IMG/VR virus record: IMGVR_UViG_3300031813_000669
Span: 1-64,000 of that record
DNA length: 64,000 bases
Source: a virus
Taxonomy: Duplodnaviria; Caudoviricetes
Reading direction: 5' to 3' (one strand)
Each line of letters starts with the position of its first letter. Position 1 is the first letter of the stretch. Position numbers and translations under genes: made by a program. Positions 23,088 through 39,492 of the stretch are shown one piece after another. The notes beneath the pieces are model-generated. The model was not told where the DNA came from. It saw nothing but the letters and a program-made list of their open reading frames with translations, and did not search any database.

Positions 23088-23864
23088 ATGGCTACTATTG
23101 CTAAAGATGTTGTAACGTCAGAGGCACCACTACTCAATAAGGCGTGGTTGACCGCTGCATTTGGTATCTATGCTGTGTTCTATTTCTGGGTACGTTGGTA
23201 TGAAGGCGTATACGGATGGGCTGCAGGACTAGATTCATTCGCACCAGAGTTTGAAACTTATTGGATGAATTTCTTGTATACAGAAATTGTCCTAGAAGTG
23301 ACAACTGCAAGTATTCTATGGGGTTATATTTGGAAGTCAAGGGATCGTAACCTTGCCGCTATTACTCCAAGGGAAGAACTCCGCCGTAATATGACACACC
23401 TTGTATGGTTGTTTGCATACGCAAATGCAATCTACTGGGGTGCATCATACTTTACTGAACAGGATGGTACTTGGCATCAGACTATCGTAAGAGATACTGA
23501 TTTTACTCCAAGTCATATCATTGAGTTCTACCTGTCATACCCAATCTACATTATCACTGGATTTGCGGCATTCTTGTATGCCAAGACCCGTCTGCCATTC
23601 TTTGCAGAAGGTCTATCCCTGCCTTACCTGGTGACTGTGGTTGGTCCTTTCATGATTCTACCTAATGTTGGCCTCAACGAATGGGGACACACCTTCTGGT
23701 TCATGGAGGAACTCTTTGTGGCTCCCCTCCATTACGGATTTGTGTTCTTCGGATGGTTGGCACTAGCAATTGCAGGAGTTCTTCTCCAAGTGTTTGCCTC
23801 ATTTGGCAACCTTATTGGCAAAGAAGTAACTGAAGCAGTAGACAGTGGTCTTATTGCTAAGTAA
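23088..23864 (+). CDS. pmoC: particulate methane monooxygenase subunit C (gammaproteobacterial type), phage auxiliary metabolic gene
   Basis: VRWYEGVYGWAAGLDSFAPEFETYWMN, RDRNL..ITPREELRR, GASYFTEQDGTWHQTIVRDTDFTPSHIIEFYLSYPIY, PNVGLNEWGHTFWFMEELFVAPLHYGFV. Confidence 0.98.
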   Translation: MATIAKDVVTSEAPLLNKAWLTAAFGIYAVFYFWVRWYEGVYGWAAGLDSFAPEFETYWMNFLYTEIVLEVTTASILWGYIWKSRDRNLAAITPREELRRNMTHLVWLFAYANAIYWGASYFTEQDGTWHQTIVRDTDFTPSHIIEFYLSYPIYIITGFAAFLYAKTRLPFFAEGLSLPYLVTVVGPFMILPNVGLNEWGHTFWFMEELFVAPLHYGFVFFGWLALAIAGVLLQVFASFGNLIGKEVTEAVDSGLIAK

Positions 23865-28756: not shown

Positions 28757-30064
28757 ATGTTCATATTAGTAATAGACCCATGTGGTTTAACACTTGACTG
28801 GTGCCTACGCTGTATTGCAGCTGGGCACACAGTCAAACTTTTCACAGAAGGTAAAAAAGCAGAACCAATTGGACAGGGACTTGTTGATAAGGTAACCAAT
28901 TGGAAAAAGTATGTTGATGTTGCTGATTTAATATTTTCTTCCGACAATCTGAAATACATGGATGAAATTGATGACCTTATCAAAAAAGGTTATCCAGTAT
29001 TTGGTCCAGGTAAAAGAGCCGCAAAACTAGAACTTGATCGTATGTATGGTCAAGACGTTATCAAAGAATTTGGTGGTCCAATCATACCATCATATCCATT
29101 CAAGAATTACGACCAAGCAATTCAATTCATCAAAGATAATCCTAAGAGATATGTTTCTAAGCCAATAGGTGAAGAAGAAGATAAATCTCTGTCATATGTT
29201 GCAAAAGATGAGGCAGATATGATTGGATTCTTATCTAAGAGAAAAGAACTAGGTAAGGCCGCATCATTTATTCTACAAGAATTCAAACCCGGTGTCGAGG
29301 TAGCGGTAACAGGTATTTTCGGACCAGGTGGTTGGGAACCCTATTGGTGTGAAGGATTCGAACACAAAAAATTAATGGTTGATGAAAAAGGTCCCAATAC
29401 AGGTGAAATGGGAACTGTTATTCGTTACACCAAATACTCTAAACTAGCAAATATACTAATGAAACCAATGGAAGAAACTCTTCATAAGATTGGTTATGTT
29501 GGTATGTTAGACGTTAATGTTATTGTTGATGAAAAAGATGGTACACCATGGCCGATGGAATGGACCGCACGTCCAGGTTACCCGATGTTCAACATCATGT
29601 TGTCTCTCCATAAAGGCGATCCTGCCGAATGGATGTTAGATTGTGTCAAAGGTAAAAACACTCTGGAAGTTGAGGAGAAGACTGCCGTTGGTGTTGTTAT
29701 CTGCAACTCTGACTTCCCTTGGGCTAAGAAGCCAATCGAAACCTATCTTGATTTCCCTATTATCACAGATGATTGTGATATTGACCACGTTCATCCTTGT
29801 GAAGTAAAACTATGTACAACCATGAAGATGATTGATGATAAGGTTGTGGAAGATATTCCAGAATGGGGAACCGCAGGTACCTATGTTTGTGTTTGTACTG
29901 GTGTAGCTGATTCTATTACTGAAGCAAAAGATAAGGCTTATAAACAAATTAAAAATGTTAAAGTAGGAAATGACTACGGTTATCGTACTGATATTGGTGA
30001 AAAATGCGAAAAATATCTCAAAAAATTAAAGAAATTTGGTTATTGCACAGGATGGCGTTTTTAA
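28757..30064 (+). CDS. PurD (phosphoribosylamine-glycine ligase)-like ATP-grasp enzyme, divergent
   Basis: PVFGPGKRAAKLELDR.YG, LQEFKPGVEV, EHKKL.....GPNTGEMGT, GYVGML, EWTARPGYP, YRTDIG: PurD architecture with altered signatures. Confidence 0.75.
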   Translation: MFILVIDPCGLTLDWCLRCIAAGHTVKLFTEGKKAEPIGQGLVDKVTNWKKYVDVADLIFSSDNLKYMDEIDDLIKKGYPVFGPGKRAAKLELDRMYGQDVIKEFGGPIIPSYPFKNYDQAIQFIKDNPKRYVSKPIGEEEDKSLSYVAKDEADMIGFLSKRKELGKAASFILQEFKPGVEVAVTGIFGPGGWEPYWCEGFEHKKLMVDEKGPNTGEMGTVIRYTKYSKLANILMKPMEETLHKIGYVGMLDVNVIVDEKDGTPWPMEWTARPGYPMFNIMLSLHKGDPAEWMLDCVKGKNTLEVEEKTAVGVVICNSDFPWAKKPIETYLDFPIITDDCDIDHVHPCEVKLCTTMKMIDDKVVEDIPEWGTAGTYVCVCTGVADSITEAKDKAYKQIKNVKVGNDYGYRTDIGEKCEKYLKKLKKFGYCTGWRF

Positions 30065-30615
30065 TCAATTTTCTTACATTTCCATCCTTTATATTGATTT
30101 AATTTATTTTTTGACACCATATTCATACAACCAACATTTAAATTATTTTCTCTACAAAACTTCGACATATTTTTTATAATATATGACTTTCCGGCAGGAT
30201 CAATAATCAACCAATTACATGATTTTGATTCTGCCACTTTCAATATATGATTTTTATCTTTTGGTTTACCCTTATTAATACATCCATATCTGTTACCTTT
30301 GAAATGTAAGCTTATTTCTTTTTTTCTTTTTTCTGTATGTTTGTAACCAATAGTACTTTCGCCGCCATCTGTTTTATTGTGTAGAATTCCAGATCCATTA
30401 TCTTTTCTACCAAACCAACGTATGTAATATCTTTCCATCATCAAAGCTTGGATTTCAGACAAATCTTGTTTTATAAAGATTATTCTGGATTTGTCTTTCG
30501 GAGTGGAAATTCCATGTTTCCTATGACATTTATAGGCTCTATTTTGCTTTCCTTTTCCAACATAATATGGTGTATAATTTGAACGCAAATATAAATAAAC
30601 GTAATAAATACTCAT
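30061..30615 (-). CDS. GIY-YIG homing endonuclease
   Basis: YYVYLYLR...PYYVGKGK.NRAY...ERYYIRWFGRKD..SGILHNKTDGGE; close relative of 8827-9558. Confidence 0.9.
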   Translation of the reverse strand: MSIYYVYLYLRSNYTPYYVGKGKQNRAYKCHRKHGISTPKDKSRIIFIKQDLSEIQALMMERYYIRWFGRKDNGSGILHNKTDGGESTIGYKHTEKRKKEISLHFKGNRYGCINKGKPKDKNHILKVAESKSCNWLIIDPAGKSYIIKNMSKFCRENNLNVGCMNMVSKNKLNQYKGWKCKKID

Positions 30616-32306: not shown

Positions 32307-32974
32307 AATTTAATTATTGCCCACCTATACAGATTCCTGAACTGGAGTCAGTAACATATCCAGATGGAAAAAGATATTATCTCACCCCAGACGGAGATAA
32401 GTTTCCATCAGTTACAACTGTTGTGGGTTCGGTAAAAAAGAAACAGATAATGGAATGGAGAAAACGTGTTGGTGATGAAGAAGCCAATAGAGTATCCAGA
32501 GTAGCATCAAACAGAGGAACAACCGTTCATACCTTGTGTGAACGGTACCTCAATAATGAATCTGTTGGTTCTGATGATATTATGCCCGATGCCTTTGCTA
32601 TGTTTAGGTCAATCAGACCTATTCTTGATGATATTAATAACATTCATTATCAAGAACAAGCACTATGGTCCAAATCGTTGGGTCTAGCAGGTCGTGTTGA
32701 TTGTATTGCAGAATTTAAAGGTCAACTTTCAGTAATCGACTTTAAAACTTCAAACAGAATCAAACACGAAGAAGATATTGAAGATTATTTCTGGCAATGC
32801 ACCGCATATGCTTTGATGTATGAAGAACTGGTGGGAATACCTATTCATAATATTCATATCATTATGGCTGTTGAAGGTAGTAAACCAATTGTGTTTAGTA
32901 AAAGAACAGAAGATTATATTTCAGGTCTGGTCAAGGTCATCCGAGACTACAACAAGGGCTTGACAAATTCTTAA
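32303..32974 (+). CDS. PD-(D/E)XK exonuclease (Cas4-like, T4-like phage exonuclease)
   Basis: PSVTTV, RGTTVH..CERYL, LAGRVDCIAEF.GQLSVIDFKTS, QCTAYALMYEE. Confidence 0.9.
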   Translation: MKFNYCPPIQIPELESVTYPDGKRYYLTPDGDKFPSVTTVVGSVKKKQIMEWRKRVGDEEANRVSRVASNRGTTVHTLCERYLNNESVGSDDIMPDAFAMFRSIRPILDDINNIHYQEQALWSKSLGLAGRVDCIAEFKGQLSVIDFKTSNRIKHEEDIEDYFWQCTAYALMYEELVGIPIHNIHIIMAVEGSKPIVFSKRTEDYISGLVKVIRDYNKGLTNS

Positions 32975-33122
32975 TTTTCATATATAATAGTACAATGAAA
33001 GTAAAAGAACTCATACAAAAATATTTCGAAGCAATCTTCAACAAAGACTCCCAAAAGGAAGAAAAGTTGTATAAGAAGATTACCAAGAAGAGTCTGAAAG
33101 GTAAAAAGACTCAAAGAATTCG

Positions 33123-33770
33123 TTGATGTTGTTGAAAATAATGATACTGGAAATAAATGAAAAAGATTTAACCGATATCAAAAGAAAAATTAAATATCTG
33201 GTTAATCTCAAAGAAAACTTAATGAAAGAACAAGATATTAGGCTTGTTCAGGATGATAAACTTGAGAAAAAACTTAGAGGTAAGGAAAAAGATTACCAAT
33301 CAATATTGAGATTATATGAATCTAATATTAGTCAAATTTATGAGAAAAAAGATATAAATTCTTTTTATGTTTATTTTCATTGTGATCCCAATATACCATT
33401 GAATATTAATAAAAATGCAAAAAATTTATTTGCAGCTTCTATAGGATTAACTCATCAACCTTTCTATGTTGGTAAAGGAACAGGTGATAGATTCAATGAT
33501 ACTAACAGGAATGATAGTTACGCAAAGAAAAAACAACAGATAAAACAGTCCGACAAAGAAATTATTATAGTTAAATGGAAAGAGAATTTAACTGAAGATG
33601 AATCTTTTTCATATGAATCAAAATTTATTGATATTTTTGGATTAATTTCGTTCAGTCAATATAATTGGTTGGTCAATTTAGACGAAGGTAAAGATAAAGA
33701 AAAAAGAAGAAATCTATATAAGAGAGGTTCAAAAAGAATTTTACTATCGAATAAAATGATAGTTAATTAA
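33123..33770 (+). CDS. GIY-YIG (LEM-3-like) endonuclease
   Basis: FYVYFHCDP...PFYVGKGTGDR...YESKFIDIFG...LVN. Confidence 0.75.
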   Translation: MMLLKIMILEINEKDLTDIKRKIKYLVNLKENLMKEQDIRLVQDDKLEKKLRGKEKDYQSILRLYESNISQIYEKKDINSFYVYFHCDPNIPLNINKNAKNLFAASIGLTHQPFYVGKGTGDRFNDTNRNDSYAKKKQQIKQSDKEIIIVKWKENLTEDESFSYESKFIDIFGLISFSQYNWLVNLDEGKDKEKRRNLYKRGSKRILLSNKMIVN

Positions 33771-33774
33771 TCTG

Positions 33775-34185
33775 CCACATATTTCTGTGGCAACTTTATA
33801 ATGTAGTTGCAGGAAGACAGCGGGGCAGTACCGCTCCACTCCACCAAAAGGACATTTATGACAGATTTGGAAATAATAGAAGAAGTCAATCAATGGTTTA
33901 GTAAAAATCATCATATGTTCAAAACTGATGAATACTACGGGATTGATATTGTCTGTGAGTTGTATAAACTTGTCAATAAGTGTGCTTCTGATGGGGTGGA
34001 ACCAGTATCGATTCGGTAATGAAGTTATAAGGGGATCGGCAAGAATCAGAAGCCGTTAGGATTGGGGTTACCCGGTCGAAGATGATAAATAAAAGTAATT
34101 GCAAACGATAGCGATTATTCTTACGCTCTTGCAGCGTAAGTGAGGTTTCGGTAGGTTGACCTTATCACAAGAATAACCTACCACT
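33775..34185 (+). ncRNA. ssrA: circularly permuted (two-piece) tmRNA: acceptor piece ~33775-33846, intervening segment 33847-33992, coding piece from 33993
   Basis: T-arm AGCGG-GGCAGTA-CCGCT plus CCACTCC-A-CCA (33819-33846) comes before the 5' end GGGGTGG (33993). The acceptor stem pairs with G3.U70. Tag GCA...GCG TAA (34101-34139) = ANDSDYSYALAA. Helix-2 pairing TTATAAGG/CTTTATAA between the pieces. Outer boundaries are approximate. Confidence 0.9.
33858..34019 (+). CDS. putative 53-aa ORF inside the tmRNA intervening segment
   Basis: AAGGA RBS, ATG 33858; MTDLEIIEEVNQWFSKNHH...SDGVEPVSIR. Confidence 0.4.
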   Translation: MTDLEIIEEVNQWFSKNHHMFKTDEYYGIDIVCELYKLVNKCASDGVEPVSIR

Positions 34186-34371
34186 TTTATCAACAACAGA
34201 AGGTAACTACAAATTATTATTTGATTTTGACTCAATCGGGAATTTACAACTCCCTGTTTTTTAAACACTCCAAAAAGTAAAAAAAGCGAAAAAGTCTATT
34301 CGTAACTGGAGACCAAGAGTTTTCTGAGAATACTATTCTCTTAAATCTCGTAATCAAGAGGTAAGAAAACG

Positions 34372-34725
34372 ATGTATTCGAAACATCTAAAACCAAAACT
34401 TTTGTCATTAATTTTTCTGGCATTGTTATCAACAAACTTAATGGCACAAACTGGTACAGCATCATGGTATGGACATCCACACCATGGTAAAAAAACTGCA
34501 TCAGGTCAGATATATAATATGCATCATTTGACAGCTGCTCACCGGACAATTAAATTAGGATCTAAAGTAAAAGTAACCAATTTAAAGAATAAAAAGTCTG
34601 TGGTTGTTACAATCAATGATCGGGGACCTTTTGCAAAAGGTCGTATTATTGACCTTTCTCATGCAGCTAAAACTGCAATTGATATGGATGGTACTGCAAA
34701 AGTGAGTTTAGAAATTTTGGATTGA
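34372..34725 (+). CDS. rlpA: RlpA-family lytic transglycosylase (DPBB) with signal peptide
   Basis: GTASWYG...KTASGQ.YN...[37 protein letters not shown]. Confidence 0.92.
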
Positions 34726-34900
34726 CACAGAGATCAAACTATGATATCCTTTACTGTACATGAATATTGTGAAGATGGTATAATGATAACCAGGCATGAA
34801 CCTATTGAACCTCCTGTTCAAGGTCTGTCTCCAAATTATACATCTACAATCAAAATGAAAAAGTCTGAATTGACGCATCTAATTAATATATTGAGTGATT

Positions 34901-35128
34901 ATGTCGAAACCAAGTAAGGATGAAATACAAGAATTTAGTATGATGATTGAGGTTATGGCATCCGATCTTAAATGTAATAGGTTGGATGCCATTCTTCATC
35001 ATTGTGAAGAAACTGGTCTTGAAGTTGAAGTGGCCAGCACATTACTATCATCTGCTCTGAAAGGTAAAATCAGAGAAGAATCTGAACAACAAAATTTGGT
35101 AAAGAAATCATCTAAACTGCCAATATGA
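34901..35128 (+). CDS. gp33: late promoter transcription co-activator gp33
   Basis: DAILHHCEETGLEVEVASTLLSSALKGKIREE; position immediately before gp59 and gp32. Confidence 0.8.
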   Translation: MSKPSKDEIQEFSMMIEVMASDLKCNRLDAILHHCEETGLEVEVASTLLSSALKGKIREESEQQNLVKKSSKLPI

Positions 35129-35727
35129 TTTTAATTGAAGGTGAAGGTTTTAGTGCCTACGCCATTTATAATGCAATACATCTGCATTTTACTTCAAGTA
35201 GTTATGATTACTTCAAGTATAATGGCGGTACTAATGTAAGTAAAGATTCATTTCTGAAAAGGAATGATAAATATAAGTTTCATAAACTATCCAGAAAATA
35301 CTCAAATGATGAGTTAAGAGATTATTTTGTCTCTAATTTTATTCATGCTGAGGTAAACTGGGTAGGTGATATTGTAGGTGAAACGGGTGAAACTACCTAT
35401 CGTGACTGGAAGAAAAGGAATCAAAGTCTGACTTATGTATATCAGAATGATATCAAGACTTTATTTGATGAGGTAGATAGTCCAGGTGATCTTTTGGCAA
35501 TTAAGTCAGGTAACTATCCTAGACTGTTGAAGGTAACAATGGAAGGTAGAATTTCACTTGAAACTTTATGTATATTGAATGATATTATGAATTTCTTTCC
35601 TATGTGGGAAAAAAAGATAGATGATGATATAATATGGCCGACCTGGAAAAGAAAGGTTGAACGATATACACCGTTTATCAATTATGATAAAGATAAGTTT
35701 AAGAAGATACTGAAGGAAGAAATATGA
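35125..35727 (+). CDS. gp59: helicase loader gp59
   Basis: Y.AIHLHFTS.SYDYFKYNG.T.VS..SF.KR.DKY.F.KLSRKY...ISLETL.IL. Confidence 0.9.
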   Translation: MILIEGEGFSAYAIYNAIHLHFTSSSYDYFKYNGGTNVSKDSFLKRNDKYKFHKLSRKYSNDELRDYFVSNFIHAEVNWVGDIVGETGETTYRDWKKRNQSLTYVYQNDIKTLFDEVDSPGDLLAIKSGNYPRLLKVTMEGRISLETLCILNDIMNFFPMWEKKIDDDIIWPTWKRKVERYTPFINYDKDKFKKILKEEI

Positions 35728-36215
35728 AAAAGCCACAAATTAGTTGCATCTACCTTGATATGGATGGGGTTATTGCAGACTTTGAAAAGAGATATAAAGA
35801 ACTCTTTCATATGGAACCTAGAGAGGCTGAAAAACAGGAAAAGTTTAGGCCATTCTTTGCTGAATTTATCAGAAACCAAAACTTTGCTTCACTTGAACCA
35901 ATGGAACATTCTATGGATGCCATTTCTTATTTGAAGAAACTCCATGTTCCTACGCAGATACTTTCTTCTACAGCCAATGAGAAATATTATGATGATATTT
36001 CTAAACAGAAGATGATTTGGTTACAGAAGTATGGTATCACATTTAACCCTATTTTTGTTCCAGGTAAAAGACTGAAACAACAATATGCCGCACCTGATAA
36101 GATTTTGATTGATGATACAGAAATCAACATCAAGCAATGGAATGAAGCAGGAGGCATTGGTATTCTCCATAAAGATTGGGAAACCACTCTGGCCATTCTT
36201 AAAATGTATGTCTAA
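35724..36215 (+). CDS. 5'(3')-deoxyribonucleotidase (HAD)
   Basis: IYLDMDGVIADF, ILSST, ILIDD...NI.QW..AGGIGILH. Confidence 0.85.
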   Translation: MKKPQISCIYLDMDGVIADFEKRYKELFHMEPREAEKQEKFRPFFAEFIRNQNFASLEPMEHSMDAISYLKKLHVPTQILSSTANEKYYDDISKQKMIWLQKYGITFNPIFVPGKRLKQQYAAPDKILIDDTEINIKQWNEAGGIGILHKDWETTLAILKMYV

Positions 36216-36223
36216 ATAGGGGA

Positions 36224-36322
36224 TTGACAATAAATCTATATTATGTTATAATCCGTTTTTCATTATGTGTAAGTGATATATTCCGTTAATACACCGTTAT
36301 ACACCGTTAATAAGAGGTAATT
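36224..36322 (+). promoter_or_regulatory. gp32 promoter (TTGACA-17-TATAAT) and repeat-containing leader
   Basis: -35 at 36224, -10 at 36247; CCGTTA(A)TA repeats at 36283-36313. Confidence 0.65.
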
Positions 36323-37228
36323 ATGTCTAATTTTGCAAATCTAAAAAAGCAGTCTGGTAATCTTGATAAGCTTGCAAAGGCTATCGAGCAACTCAATTCT
36401 TCCGATTCTGAATCATCTTCCGATAAGTTCTGGCGTCCTGAAACCGATAAGGCAGGCAATGGTATGGCAACTATTCGTTTCCTACCTGGTGCATCTGTCG
36501 ATGGTGATGATGCACTTCCTTGGGTTAAGGTATTCTCCCATGGATTCCAGGGTCCAGGTGGTTGGTTGATCGATAACTGTCTCACCACCAAGAATCAGCA
36601 ATGTCCTGTTTGTGAACACAATTCTACTCTTTGGAATTCTGGCATCGAAGCGAATAAGGATATCGTTCGTAAACAGAAGCGTAAGTTGAATTATATTTCT
36701 AATGTTTACATCGTTTCTGATCCTAAGCATCCAGAAAATGAAGGTAAGGTTGTTCTATTCAAGTATGGTAAGAAAATCTTTGATAAGATTACTGAAGCAA
36801 TGAATCCGCAGTTTGAAGATGAACCAAAGTTCAATCCCTTTGATCTCTGGAAGGGTGCCAATTTCAAGTTGAAGATTCGTAAGGTGGATGGATATCCTAA
36901 CTACGATAAATCTGAATTTGAATCATGCTCTGTATTGAGTGATTTTGATGATGGTGAACTTGAAAAGATTTGGAAGTCTGAACATTCATTGAATGATCTG
37001 CTTGCAGACAAGGAATTTAAGTCTTATGATGAATTGAAGAATCGTCTTGATCGTGTTCTTGGTCTGGCTGGAGAATCTCGTCCTAAGACGACCGTTGAAC
37101 AGATTAAAGAGTCTGCACCTAAGTCTCGTCCTGTTGCGGAAGATGCACCATGGCAAGACAAGGCAACGATCTCTGAAGATGATGATGACCTAGATTCATA
37201 CTTCTCCAAGTTGGTTGAAGAAGATTAA
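36323..37228 (+). CDS. gp32: single-stranded DNA-binding protein gp32
   Basis: DKFWRPETDKAGNG.ATIRFLP, HGFQGPGGW.IDNCLTT...CPVCEHN, KYGKKIFDKI, GANFKLKIRKV; acidic tail. Confidence 0.97.
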   Translation: MSNFANLKKQSGNLDKLAKAIEQLNSSDSESSSDKFWRPETDKAGNGMATIRFLPGASVDGDDALPWVKVFSHGFQGPGGWLIDNCLTTKNQQCPVCEHNSTLWNSGIEANKDIVRKQKRKLNYISNVYIVSDPKHPENEGKVVLFKYGKKIFDKITEAMNPQFEDEPKFNPFDLWKGANFKLKIRKVDGYPNYDKSEFESCSVLSDFDDGELEKIWKSEHSLNDLLADKEFKSYDELKNRLDRVLGLAGESRPKTTVEQIKESAPKSRPVAEDAPWQDKATISEDDDDLDSYFSKLVEED

Positions 37229-37270: not shown

Positions 37271-39492
37271 TACCATCTAACTTTCATAGGATTGTTACTC
37301 ATATAATTCGCAACCTGTAAAGACCAATCTTTGTCTCTCACAGGAATAGATGAGTAGTCTACAATACCCTTTTCGTTCTTAGATACATTATTTTTGACAG
37401 AATTGACTGTCATAGATTGTACCGCTTTATTCCAAGTTGATTCCATAACAGTAGTAGGATCAGAATTAGGGTCTTCTTTTACTTCTGTTTTTCTTTCTAT
37501 GGTTGTTAAGGATTCAATCTTTAATCTTATCTTATCAATAGTGGCTGGATCTTCGGCTTTATCTACAACCTTTTTCAGACCTTTCTGGAACATATCATAA
37601 TATTTTTCCGCATCAGCCATGAAATCCAATGTTTCTATTTTTTCGGCCTTCTTTATGGCTTCTTCTTGTATAGGCTTTAATTTCTCAGCAACACCTTGTA
37701 CTGTTGCTCCTCTTAAAGATGAATAGGTTTCTTTTGCTTTGGCTGATACTTGAGTAGGTATTTTAGACGCAGACTCTTCAGCCTCCTCGACCTTTTCTTC
37801 TGCTTTTTCTTTTGCATCTTCCAATTTTTTGAAAGTTTCTGAACTTGTAACAGTTTCACCAAACTTTGTTAATTTACCTTTAGCATAATTGGAAAGTTCT
37901 ACACCCTTTTCTTTTAAGAAATTCTTTGCAGGTTCTTCAATTTGTTGTGCTATGTGTCTGGGTAACATTAAATCATAGAATTCAGCATGACCTGATATTT
38001 TTGATCCATCAGGACGTTTGATATAATCGGTAACATCAACTGACAATTTATCTTTTTCAGATTTCATTTGACCGACTTTATTCATATATGCGTCTTTGTC
38101 AAAAGTATAGCCGGTACCGACCAATTTTTCTTCAATATGATTCATTTGTTGTTTTCTCAATTCAAGTATTTTTACTAATTGAGAATTAACTCGGTCTTGA
38201 TATTCTTTATCACCTTCTTCGGGAGTTTTAGCCAAGACTTCATCCAACTTTTCGGGATGATCCATTACATCTTGTAAATAATCTTCACTTTGGAATCTTT
38301 TTTTAATATCTTGTTGTGCAGCTGTCTTCTCTGGCATTTGACCAACAATATCTTTTAAAGTGTCTTGGTACCCTTCTCCATATCTAAGTGTTTTAGCAAA
38401 ACCAGAGAGACTTGTTACTGCGGCTTGTATTCCGAAAATTGCAGATAGACCTTTCATCCACCAAGGACCTAAAGCACCAACAACCATACCAGCAACTCCA
38501 CCATTTTTACTAGCTTCTGCCATTATAAATCCCATTAAGGATTTTAATGAGTTACCTATGAGTGAAGGTAACTGTTCCGAAATAAAAGTAGAAATTCCAT
38601 CAATAACACTAGATATTTGAGATGTTACCCAGTCCACAACTTCTTTGATAGTACCTTGTACACCTTCAGATAATGATGTTGACTTATCTGACAACGACTT
38701 AAATATTGGTGAATTCTTTACCATGTTAATGACAGGACTTATAAAATCCATAATACCTTCATAGATACTTTTTATAACATTGATTACAGAAACAATTTTA
38801 TCACCATATGATACTAGACTTTTTAAAGTTTCTTTTGCAAATTCTTTGATTTCATCTCGAAATAGATAAACTAATCCAGTAATTGCGGTTGCAAGACCAA
38901 CCCAGAAAGTACCTTTTAAAATAGATCCAACCTTTCCAAAGAAACCTTTCTTCTTTTTTAGTCCAAGGTCTTTTTCAACTTTTTCATACTTTCTTTCTCT
39001 TTCCTGTTGTTTTTCTTTTTTCAGACCTTTCTTAGAATCTATTTCTTTCTTCTCTTTCTCTGCATTTTTTGTCATGAAACTATAAATTTTCATAAGAACG
39101 TTTTTATAGTATTCACCCAAAGGTAAATCAGGATCAAGATCATATTCTTCATCTTTAATTGTAGATGCTGATTCTTTTATAGGCATTCTATTAACAAGTT
39201 CAGTTACAGCCAGAACTGTATTTTCTAAACTTTTCATATCTTTTTCAAGATCGGTCATGCGACCCAAAATTGCAGGAATTCTGGCATCATCGGCTGATCC
39301 ACCAGCTTCTTTTTCAGCTATATCAAATTGTCTTCTTTCCGAAAACGTATTTTTTGTCGAATCTAAAATGGAAGAAATTATATCTTCAATACCAGAAACA
39401 CGATCTTCTAAATCAACAACCCTTTTTCCTTGGTTCTGATCTTGTAACTGTTTAATAACTGCACTTAAATTCGGTTGTCTTTTTTTGGCCAT
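37270..39492 (-). CDS. large coiled-coil virion protein (baseplate hub/tape-measure-like)
   Basis: 740 aa, helical and charged with central hydrophobic segments; follows gp26/gp51 and the SLT gene. Assigned by synteny only. Confidence 0.45.
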   Translation of the reverse strand: MAKKRQPNLSAVIKQLQDQNQGKRVVDLEDRVSGIEDIISSILDSTKNTFSERRQFDIAEKEAGGSADDARIPAILGRMTDLEKDMKSLENTVLAVTELVNRMPIKESASTIKDEEYDLDPDLPLGEYYKNVLMKIYSFMTKNAEKEKKEIDSKKGLKKEKQQERERKYEKVEKDLGLKKKKGFFGKVGSILKGTFWVGLATAITGLVYLFRDEIKEFAKETLKSLVSYGDKIVSVINVIKSIYEGIMDFISPVINMVKNSPIFKSLSDKSTSLSEGVQGTIKEVVDWVTSQISSVIDGISTFISEQLPSLIGNSLKSLMGFIMAEASKNGGVAGMVVGALGPWWMKGLSAIFGIQAAVTSLSGFAKTLRYGEGYQDTLKDIVGQMPEKTAAQQDIKKRFQSEDYLQDVMDHPEKLDEVLAKTPEEGDKEYQDRVNSQLVKILELRKQQMNHIEEKLVGTGYTFDKDAYMNKVGQMKSEKDKLSVDVTDYIKRPDGSKISGHAEFYDLMLPRHIAQQIEEPAKNFLKEKGVELSNYAKGKLTKFGETVTSSETFKKLEDAKEKAEEKVEEAEESASKIPTQVSAKAKETYSSLRGATVQGVAEKLKPIQEEAIKKAEKIETLDFMADAEKYYDMFQKGLKKVVDKAEDPATIDKIRLKIESLTTIERKTEVKEDPNSDPTTVMESTWNKAVQSMTVNSVKNNVSKNEKGIVDYSSIPVRDKDWSLQVANYMSNNPMKVRW

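Follow-up and report, generated by a model that had tools for sequence, protein, structure and literature searches.

An apparently intact permuted tmRNA gene with a putative small protein gene in its spacer in an uncultured freshwater T4-like pmoC phage

Transfer-messenger RNA (tmRNA) is encoded in some lineages by a circularly permuted ssrA gene and is then made in two pieces. The alphaproteobacterial two-piece tmRNA (Rfam RF01849) was reportedly described in Caulobacter by Keiler et al. in 2000, and the betaproteobacterial one (RF01850) is said to have been described by Sharkady and Williams in 2004. We examined a permuted tmRNA gene within 64 kb of viral DNA, here called the window (positions 1 to 64,000 of IMG/VR record IMGVR_UViG_3300031813_000669, a 73-kb virus record with a completeness estimate of 44%). 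Phage genes of this type have precedents. The text of Buchholz et al. 2022 (PMC9004378) that deals with tmRNA reports a two-piece tmRNA in the OM43 phage Melnitz and counts, using ARAGORN, 53 two-piece forms among 133 unique phage tmRNAs, 50 of the 53 having been sampled in marine or aquatic settings. In the 2025 tmRNA database paper (PMC11915505) the main text lists 79 phage sequences; the unusual contents that it describes include a tRNA-Ala gene and a repetitive element within intervening sequences, and T-loops that hold group I introns carrying homing-endonuclease genes. The best overall explanation for the data given below, with a probability of about 0.8, is that the window carries a functional permuted ssrA of an uncultured freshwater T4-like pmoC phage, an old resident of its locus with a gene in its spacer.

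The permuted order was observed directly: the tRNA-like 3' half (T-arm, acceptor 3' strand, and CCA end at 33846) lies upstream of the 5' half, which starts with G1 at 33993, on the same strand. The parts of the gene, in window positions, are:

33773-33846, + strand: acceptor piece, outer 5' end predicted (RF04321 and RF01849 alignments, direct reading, cofold)
33819-33835, + strand: T-arm, with stem AGCGG/CCGCT and the 7-nt loop GGCAGTA
33847-33992, + strand: intervening segment (spacer), 146 nt, predicted to be removed on maturation
33993-34182, + strand: coding piece, outer 3' end predicted (Rfam alignment, cofold)
34101-34139, + strand: tag frame, with resume codon GCA at 34101, peptide ANDSDYSYALAA and stop TAA at 34137-34139
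34120-34140, + strand: P5-like hairpin of 8 bp with loop CTTGC, holding the last tag codons and the stop (cofold)

The acceptor piece contains a 5' hairpin (33774-33791), the 3' strands of the P2 helices, the T-arm, the acceptor 3' strand CCACTCC (33836-33842), the discriminator A (A73, at 33843) and an encoded CCA (33844-33846). The coding piece contains the acceptor 5' strand GGGGTGG (33993-33999), a D-loop-like stretch, the P2 5' strands, the first stem of pseudoknot 1 (PK1; CGGC 34037-34040 with GCCG 34052-34055, as aligned by the model), the tag frame, P5 and a hairpin at 34150-34182. GGGGTGG and CCACTCC form 7/7 pairs, with G33995.T33840 as G3.U70; both alanine identity elements, G3.U70 and A73, can be read directly. 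P2 helices of 3, 5 and 8 bp between the pieces were readable by eye and in the model alignment; the 5-bp helix pairs GTTGC (33806-33810) with GTAAT (34016-34020) and includes 2 G.U, and the 8-bp helix pairs CTTTATAA (33794-33801) with TTATAAGG (34025-34032) and includes 1 G.U. A preliminary description of this DNA had named the T-arm with CCACTCC-A-CCA upstream of GGGGTGG, the 7-bp stem with its G3.U70, the latter two P2 helices and the tag; every base was found in place, and both helices were exactly as named. The T-loop GGCAGTA is the alphaproteobacterial consensus loop, not the usual TTCGA type (alpha_tmRNA alignment). The tag frame had high posterior throughout in the Rfam alignment, and its peptide starts with AND and ends in the canonical ...YALAA protease-recognition tail. 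No second CCA end follows the tag, again in agreement with the preliminary description, the next + strand TCCACCA being at 38457, 4.3 kb away. As far as can be judged from the letters, this is a real and apparently intact permuted ssrA.

The covariance models that had been proposed as a check supported the gene. RF04321, the general permuted model, was matched end to end (model positions 1-213 of 213) by 33781-34139 on the + strand, at 83.4 bits against a cut-off of 47 (E 1.8e-14); RF01849 (alpha_tmRNA) scored 60.7 bits against a cut-off of 50, with only model positions 40-271 of 355 matched. The latter was the best reported model of the tmRNA clan for the window, in a ranking where the clan filter hides the score of RF01850 (beta_tmRNA; cut-off 84 bits). 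Contigs identical to the window over 33600-34062 and over 34134-34400 were present in other lake-water metagenome runs. Deeper-covered contigs in three of these runs (X2, X5 and X9) match the window over some 30 nt at 34033-34062 and again beyond 34299, and have 316 other letters in place of the window's 237 letters 34063-34299; related phages with a different tmRNA 3' part thus co-occur, and assemblies break at the shared words.

We examined if the gene occupies a shared locus in related phages. Relatives were 80 IMG/VR loci obtained through gp59 (50-61% identity), of which 50, picked beforehand for longer contigs or more upstream DNA, were searched. RF04321 matched in 41 of the 50 (39 over the cut-off). 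In 40 of these 41 the permuted tmRNA precedes gp59 on the same strand by 874-2029 nt (median 1215 nt), compared with 986 nt in the window. When 20 relative loci were scanned with all of Rfam, nine matched beta_tmRNA (94.7-153.9 bits vs the cut-off of 84), five matched alpha_tmRNA (50.8-81.9 bits), and six matched the general permuted model only. The alpha-type T-arm also occurs in two relatives, L091 and L109, and L091 joins the same T-loop to a 142-bit beta-type gene.

Four sets of sequences were compared: viral contigs with an alpha-type T-arm plus CCA; their bacterial counterparts, for which 71 of the 80 titles listed refer to Alphaproteobacteria; bacterial contigs that combine a standard T-arm with a tmRNA 5' end (mostly Burkholderiales, Rhodocyclales and Nitrosomonadales, plus nine Stenotrophomonas); and the gp59-relative loci. 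Trees were made with the window and all 25 unique rows of the gp59 set, to which random samples were added: 22 of the 72 viral rows with an alpha T-arm, 22 of the 70 bacterial alpha rows that were left once 3 with non-alpha titles had been taken out, and 22 of the 59 beta rows, which gave 20 unique ones. In the tRNA-like-domain tree most phage genes of the gp59 set nested among bacterial beta-type genes; the window and L091 were placed between the two sides, the window gene on a long branch (0.73). In the coding-piece tree the window shares a starred clade (100/96) on the beta side with 16 of the phage rows from the gp59 set. In the acceptor-piece tree the window was paired with a viral alpha-T-arm row (98/95), and its nearest rows were phage and Pelagibacter rows of alpha type. 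The identity of the coding piece was 0.70-0.73 to phage relatives vs at most 0.63 to any bacterial alpha gene; for the acceptor piece, the best bacterial alpha identity was 0.71, and phage relatives reached 0.73. A 27-base stretch across the T-arm and acceptor had 0 exact matches in a 185,579-species genome collection, which makes a recent capture unlikely. The window tmRNA may thus be a mosaic, with an alpha-like T-arm on the backbone of a beta-side phage lineage; this is suggestive only, because the approximately unbiased (AU) tests rejected neither alpha nor beta placement of either piece (p 0.27-0.49). In our reading the tmRNA gene is an old resident of the phage lineage, at a fixed gp33-gp59-gp32 locus, that recombines among phages.

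Some rows of these sets deserve mention in their own right. One virus genome of 235,812 nt (G048, called 100% complete) has two permuted tmRNA genes, at 143658-143932 and 172862-173101 (104.3 and 118.4 bits). A 4512-nt contig from a metagenome-assembled genome (MAG) titled Methanoregula (L486) has a permuted beta-type tmRNA that groups with two phage rows, L082 and L108. The contig probably comes from a phage and was mis-binned as an archaeon, like the 'archaeal' tmRNAs discussed in the main text of PMC11915505. The nine Stenotrophomonas contigs that fit the pattern of standard T-arm/CCA plus tmRNA 5' end are L475, L476, L481, L483, L488, L497, L502, L513 and L519, and the four that were sampled form a starred clade of their own. 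Five contigs titled Candidatus Saccharibacteria (L347, L359, L360, L363 and L368) have the alpha-type T-arm plus CCA pattern; four of them showed no 5' half within 600 nt by our heuristic, and L347 showed one at 594 nt, where ARAGORN calls no tmRNA.

The probable host was assessed from one further gene of the window:

23088-23864, + strand: stand-alone pmoC encoding a 258-residue PmoC, which marks the record as a pmoC-phage

This protein shares 82-95% identity with freshwater Methylococcaceae PmoC sequences, including those on contigs of 344-452 kb and that of the isolate Methylotetracoccus oryzae; none of the best 80 PmoC loci belonged to an alphaproteobacterial methanotroph. By the reasoning applied to pmoC-phages in PMC7674155 (in whose main text the word 'tmRNA' is absent), this similarity indicates that the host is probably a gammaproteobacterial methanotroph. 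Four of five Methylococcaceae genomes have a standard one-piece tmRNA (203.5-223.7 bits), and the fifth, a 2-Mb bin, gave no match over the cut-off. None of the five has a permuted tmRNA over the cut-off, the matches to the permuted model all being below it. The phage gene is therefore not a copy of the probable host gene, as had been proposed in the preliminary description, and the near-identical permuted host ssrA that would have removed its novelty was not seen in these genomes. The tags of the candidate hosts are ANDDNYALAA (three genomes) and ANDDVYALAA (one), with which the phage tag shares the AND start and the YALAA end. No beta_tmRNA over the cut-off was found in 151 genomes from the class of one candidate host (G055), and no bacterial beta-type rows came from there; the 151 include two unpublished genomes (G196 and G094), on which nothing here depends. 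In a candidate host genome (L201:943-1595, - strand) ARAGORN reports a 'permuted' tmRNA that overlaps the standard one and has an implausible tag; this looks like a false call.

The spacer of 146 nt is long compared with the 34-87 nt in relatives (exceptions, 120 and 175 nt), and begins AAAG and ends TGAT as in most phage relatives. It contains an open reading frame (ORF):

33858-34019, + strand: 53-codon spacer ORF, with AAGGA at 33848-33852, 5 nt before the ATG, and stop TAA at 34017-34019

The ORF reads through the tmRNA 5' end and stops inside the mature coding piece, its full-length product ending ...SDGVEPVSIR; its conserved core of 46 residues ends ...SDG, in codons that span the tmRNA 5' end. 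Five homologues of 83-98% identity keep the first 46 residues and diverge after ...SDG, because different tmRNA bodies lie downstream. In a contig of a different lake run this ORF recurs with four substitutions, every one of them synonymous and in a third codon position (4/4); each of the four variant bases would alter a residue in the one antisense frame that is open. On that contig the ORF is flanked on both sides by a different T-arm and acceptor pair (at the loose ends of the contig). A profile search of 1.84 billion representatives gave 26 clusters at E<=1e-3, with lengths of 45-337 residues (25 of them 45-115), and W13, F21 and G28 were kept in at least 90% of the rows in an alignment of 28 (25 clusters, the window ORF and two close homologues). 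Several members of the family read into recognisable tmRNA 5' sequence, by our own reading of their C-terminal residues. A family member of about 55% identity lies in the spacer of a 97.8-bit permuted tmRNA (L523), and has its own TAAGGA and a TGA stop within the TGAT that precedes G1. For function, no usable match was found in Pfam, PHROGs, a PDB profile search or the ESM Atlas; one family member matched SMN_YG-box (E 6e-5), which was taken as chance. Searches by peptide patterns found no relatives of the window ORF in viral_contigs or metagenome_contigs. Judged from the pattern of substitutions, the spacer ORF is a real small protein gene under selection, which would be translated from its Shine-Dalgarno site, and it appears to have been exchanged between different tmRNA genes.

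Long spacers were then compared in other tmRNA genes, the 5' end being taken by a heuristic as the first 7-mer starting with GG that pairs fully with the 3' strand (spacers under about 20 nt are doubtful by this method). Among genes with both halves found in this way, 26 of 72 viral genes with an alpha-type T-arm had spacers of at least 95 nt vs 3 of 73 bacterial genes. In 13 of 28 long spacers (these 26, the window and L112), no more than 5% of shuffles gave an open frame as long as the longest one present. In many cases the frame has its start 12-23 nt past the CCA and is preceded by a purine-rich site. Roughly half of the long ORFs end ahead of G1; the others extend 10-40 nt into the tmRNA. 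Pairs of homologous spacer ORFs gave ratios of nonsynonymous to synonymous change (dN/dS) of 0.22-0.51, with one pair saturated at synonymous sites, and the spacer ORF of one viral permuted tmRNA (L255:6413-6595, + strand) matches Pfam DUF6356 (33.8 bits vs a cut-off of 24.4). TGAT precedes G1 in 21/25 and 48/63 unique phage genes vs 9/52 bacterial genes, and NAAG follows the CCA in 19/25 genes of the gp59 set.

From these data the following course of events may be proposed. A single transcript would begin with the acceptor piece, continue through the spacer and finish with the coding piece. Cuts made by RNase P and 3'-end enzymes of the host, after the CCA (33846) and before G1 (33993), would release the two pieces, which would be held together by the acceptor stem and P2 helices. 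Host alanyl-tRNA synthetase (AlaRS) would charge the RNA through G3.U70 and A73, and SmpB and EF-Tu of the host would bring it to stalled ribosomes, which would be rescued as the nascent chain gained ANDSDYSYALAA with its degradation tail. Broken messages should be plentiful while a T4-like phage degrades host mRNA. Translation of the spacer gene could take place on the precursor or, in those genes whose stop precedes G1, on the excised spacer; the window gene has its stop past G1, so that processing and complete translation would be mutually exclusive for each molecule.

Several results weigh against the overall explanation given at the outset. ARAGORN, another check put forward in the preliminary description, called no tmRNA gene in the window; it calls a permuted tmRNA in 45 of 60 related loci, some of which have spacers as long as 175-247 nt, so the miss cannot be put down to the length of the spacer alone. 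The RF04321 score of the window is below those of all relatives over the cut-off (94.9-156.3 bits). The second stem of PK1 was not established, the cofold shows an extra hairpin at 34061-34079, and the minimum-free-energy cofold pairs 33802-33816 with the 3' tail (34184-34198) in preference to the P2 helices. None of the contigs compared bridges 34062-34134 identically, no SmpB gene was found in the 73-kb record (about 44% complete), the AU tests cited above were undecided on origin, and the host assignment is drawn from one gene, for which some of the top matches are on short MAG contigs that may themselves be phage. The low score, the ARAGORN miss and the incomplete PK1 could represent a decaying or non-functional remnant, kept because the spacer and neighbouring genes are transcribed through it. 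We regard this as very unlikely, since the acceptor stem, G3.U70, A73, CCA and T-arm are all intact, the resume context, ...YALAA tag and stop in P5 are present, and the sequence recurs unchanged in several lake-water runs. A recent capture of an alphaproteobacterial ssrA, e.g., after a host switch as proposed for Melnitz, would agree with alpha_tmRNA as the best clan model, with a T-loop that is chiefly alphaproteobacterial among bacteria (the 71/80 titles) and with the phage and Pelagibacter neighbours of the acceptor piece. It is unlikely nonetheless: the alpha model is matched only in part, the coding piece goes with the beta-side phage lineage, bacterial alpha identities reach at most 0.71 (acceptor) and 0.63 (coding) vs 0.73 for phage relatives, the 27-base stretch has no exact match, the locus is common to 40/41 relatives, and L091 shows the same T-loop on a beta-type gene. 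The cross-lineage acquisition suggested in the preliminary description stands only in the form of an old phage-borne gene recombining among phages. Its other suggestion, an independent permutation of a one-piece tmRNA in the phage or in a gammaproteobacterial host lineage, could appeal to the one-piece genes of the candidate hosts and to the long branch (0.73), and we find it scarcely credible: an existing permuted model is matched from end to end, the locus, the AAAG...TGAT ends and about 70% identity are common to many permuted phage genes, the coding piece falls with the beta-side phages, and candidate-host tmRNAs reach the permuted model only below its cut-off.

For the spacer, the alternative to a protein gene is an ORF that is not translated, conserved as RNA structure for processing. 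The base of the spacer can form a long imperfect stem that covers the Shine-Dalgarno and AUG (cofold), which speaks against translation, one antisense frame is open, and the stop lies past the processing site. We consider this explanation rather unlikely, as the four variants are synonymous in the sense frame only; family members of less than 50% identity keep W13, F21 and G28 without frame breaks; the 55% identical member lies in another tmRNA spacer with its own Shine-Dalgarno and stop; and other spacer families show dN/dS of 0.22-0.51, one matching DUF6356. If the spacer gene is translated, the phage tmRNA spacer might be viewed as an exchangeable expression slot for small protein genes, the transcript being both messenger and stable-RNA precursor, with the two roles in competition here. 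As the conserved core ends at the RNase P site and the stop is inside the mature tmRNA, excision of the tmRNA would leave a non-stop spacer message, i.e., a substrate of the tmRNA that was released, and the arrangement could act as a switch or timer. This joint reading is tentative, and we would sooner expect it to fail than to hold.

The window has a G+C content of 31-38% and encodes T4-type replication and late-transcription genes (Pfam, tblastn). The genes around the tmRNA gene are (the last four by Pfam, tblastn and synteny):

33123-33770, + strand: GIY-YIG endonuclease-like ORF (Pfam PF22945, LEM-3_GIY-YIG; E 7.4e-6, 26.5 bits, just under the cut-off of 27)
34895-35128, + strand: gp33 late-transcription coactivator
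35125-35727, + strand: gp59 helicase loader
35724-36215, + strand: NT5C-like nucleotidase
36323-37228, + strand: gp32

The block gp33-gp59-nucleotidase-gp32 (34895-37228) is the conserved neighbourhood downstream of the tmRNA gene. Upstream, the GIY-YIG-like ORF ends 3 nt before the gene starts, and could possibly drive local recombination or exchange at the tmRNA gene. The N-terminus of a further ORF 3 kb upstream (30061-30615, - strand) has, by eye, a GIY-YIG-like look. Between the tmRNA gene and gp33 lies an RlpA-like double-psi beta-barrel protein with a signal-peptide-like start (34372-34725, + strand; Pfam DPBB_1, 83.7 bits). Among isolated phages, cyanophages come nearest in gp32 and gp59 (40-56% identity), which gives no clue to the host, and neither the tmRNA region nor pmoC had a blastn match in the phage collection. 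No glutamine riboswitch of the kind seen in Melnitz turned up in 32500-35500 with E values as high as 10 allowed. The number of promoter-like sites does not exceed chance (5 seen vs 4.6 expected). The sole terminator-like site is the hairpin 33773-33792; a weak hairpin with a T-run at 34238-34262 is altered in a variant contig. TCCACCA occurs 24 times in the window (both strands) vs 8.3 expected, a count that no shuffle reached; the excess possibly comes from codon usage.

A pmoC phage whose probable host class is one-piece offers a natural test of whether a foreign two-piece tmRNA works with the SmpB, AlaRS and proteases of another lineage. If phages routinely carry and swap small protein genes in tmRNA spacers, these would form a gene class missed by annotation pipelines, and tmRNA processing would be coupled to spacer-gene expression. 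In literature listings and in the main-text passages compared, we found no published description of protein genes in tmRNA spacers.

The closest likeness is to Melnitz and the pelagimyophages as portrayed in the tmRNA passages of PMC9004378: these too are T4-like aquatic myophages with a permuted ssrA upstream of gp33 and a tmRNA type unlike that of the host. Melnitz differs in that its OM43 host is on a two-piece branch, whereas the probable host class here is one-piece, in that it has the glutamine riboswitch, and in that its gene is plainly of alpha type whereas that of the window is mosaic-looking; the same passages do not mention a protein gene nested in the spacer. The alphaproteobacterial two-piece tmRNA (RF01849) resembles the window gene in its GGCnGTA T-loop, resume-codon context, AND... 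tag start and the 60.7-bit match, but the match is partial, the coding piece is nearer to beta-side phages, and bacterial spacers are short (3/73 reach 95 nt). The betaproteobacterial form (RF01850) is like the genes at 9/20 related phage loci, at 94.7-153.9 bits, and the window coding piece falls on its side; the window T-loop, however, is not of the TTCGA type, and for the window the alpha model outscores it, with the beta score hidden by the clan filter. The cases in the main text of PMC11915505, where the words 'open reading' are absent, are alike in that foreign DNA has settled in a stretch of the tmRNA gene that the mature RNA no longer contains; they differ in that the lodger in the window is no intron, but a Shine-Dalgarno-led small protein gene, as we read it, in the spacer of a permuted gene. 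The two-piece tmRNA of phages is itself already known; what is particular here is the one-piece tmRNA of the probable host class, and the nested, apparently exchangeable gene in the spacer.

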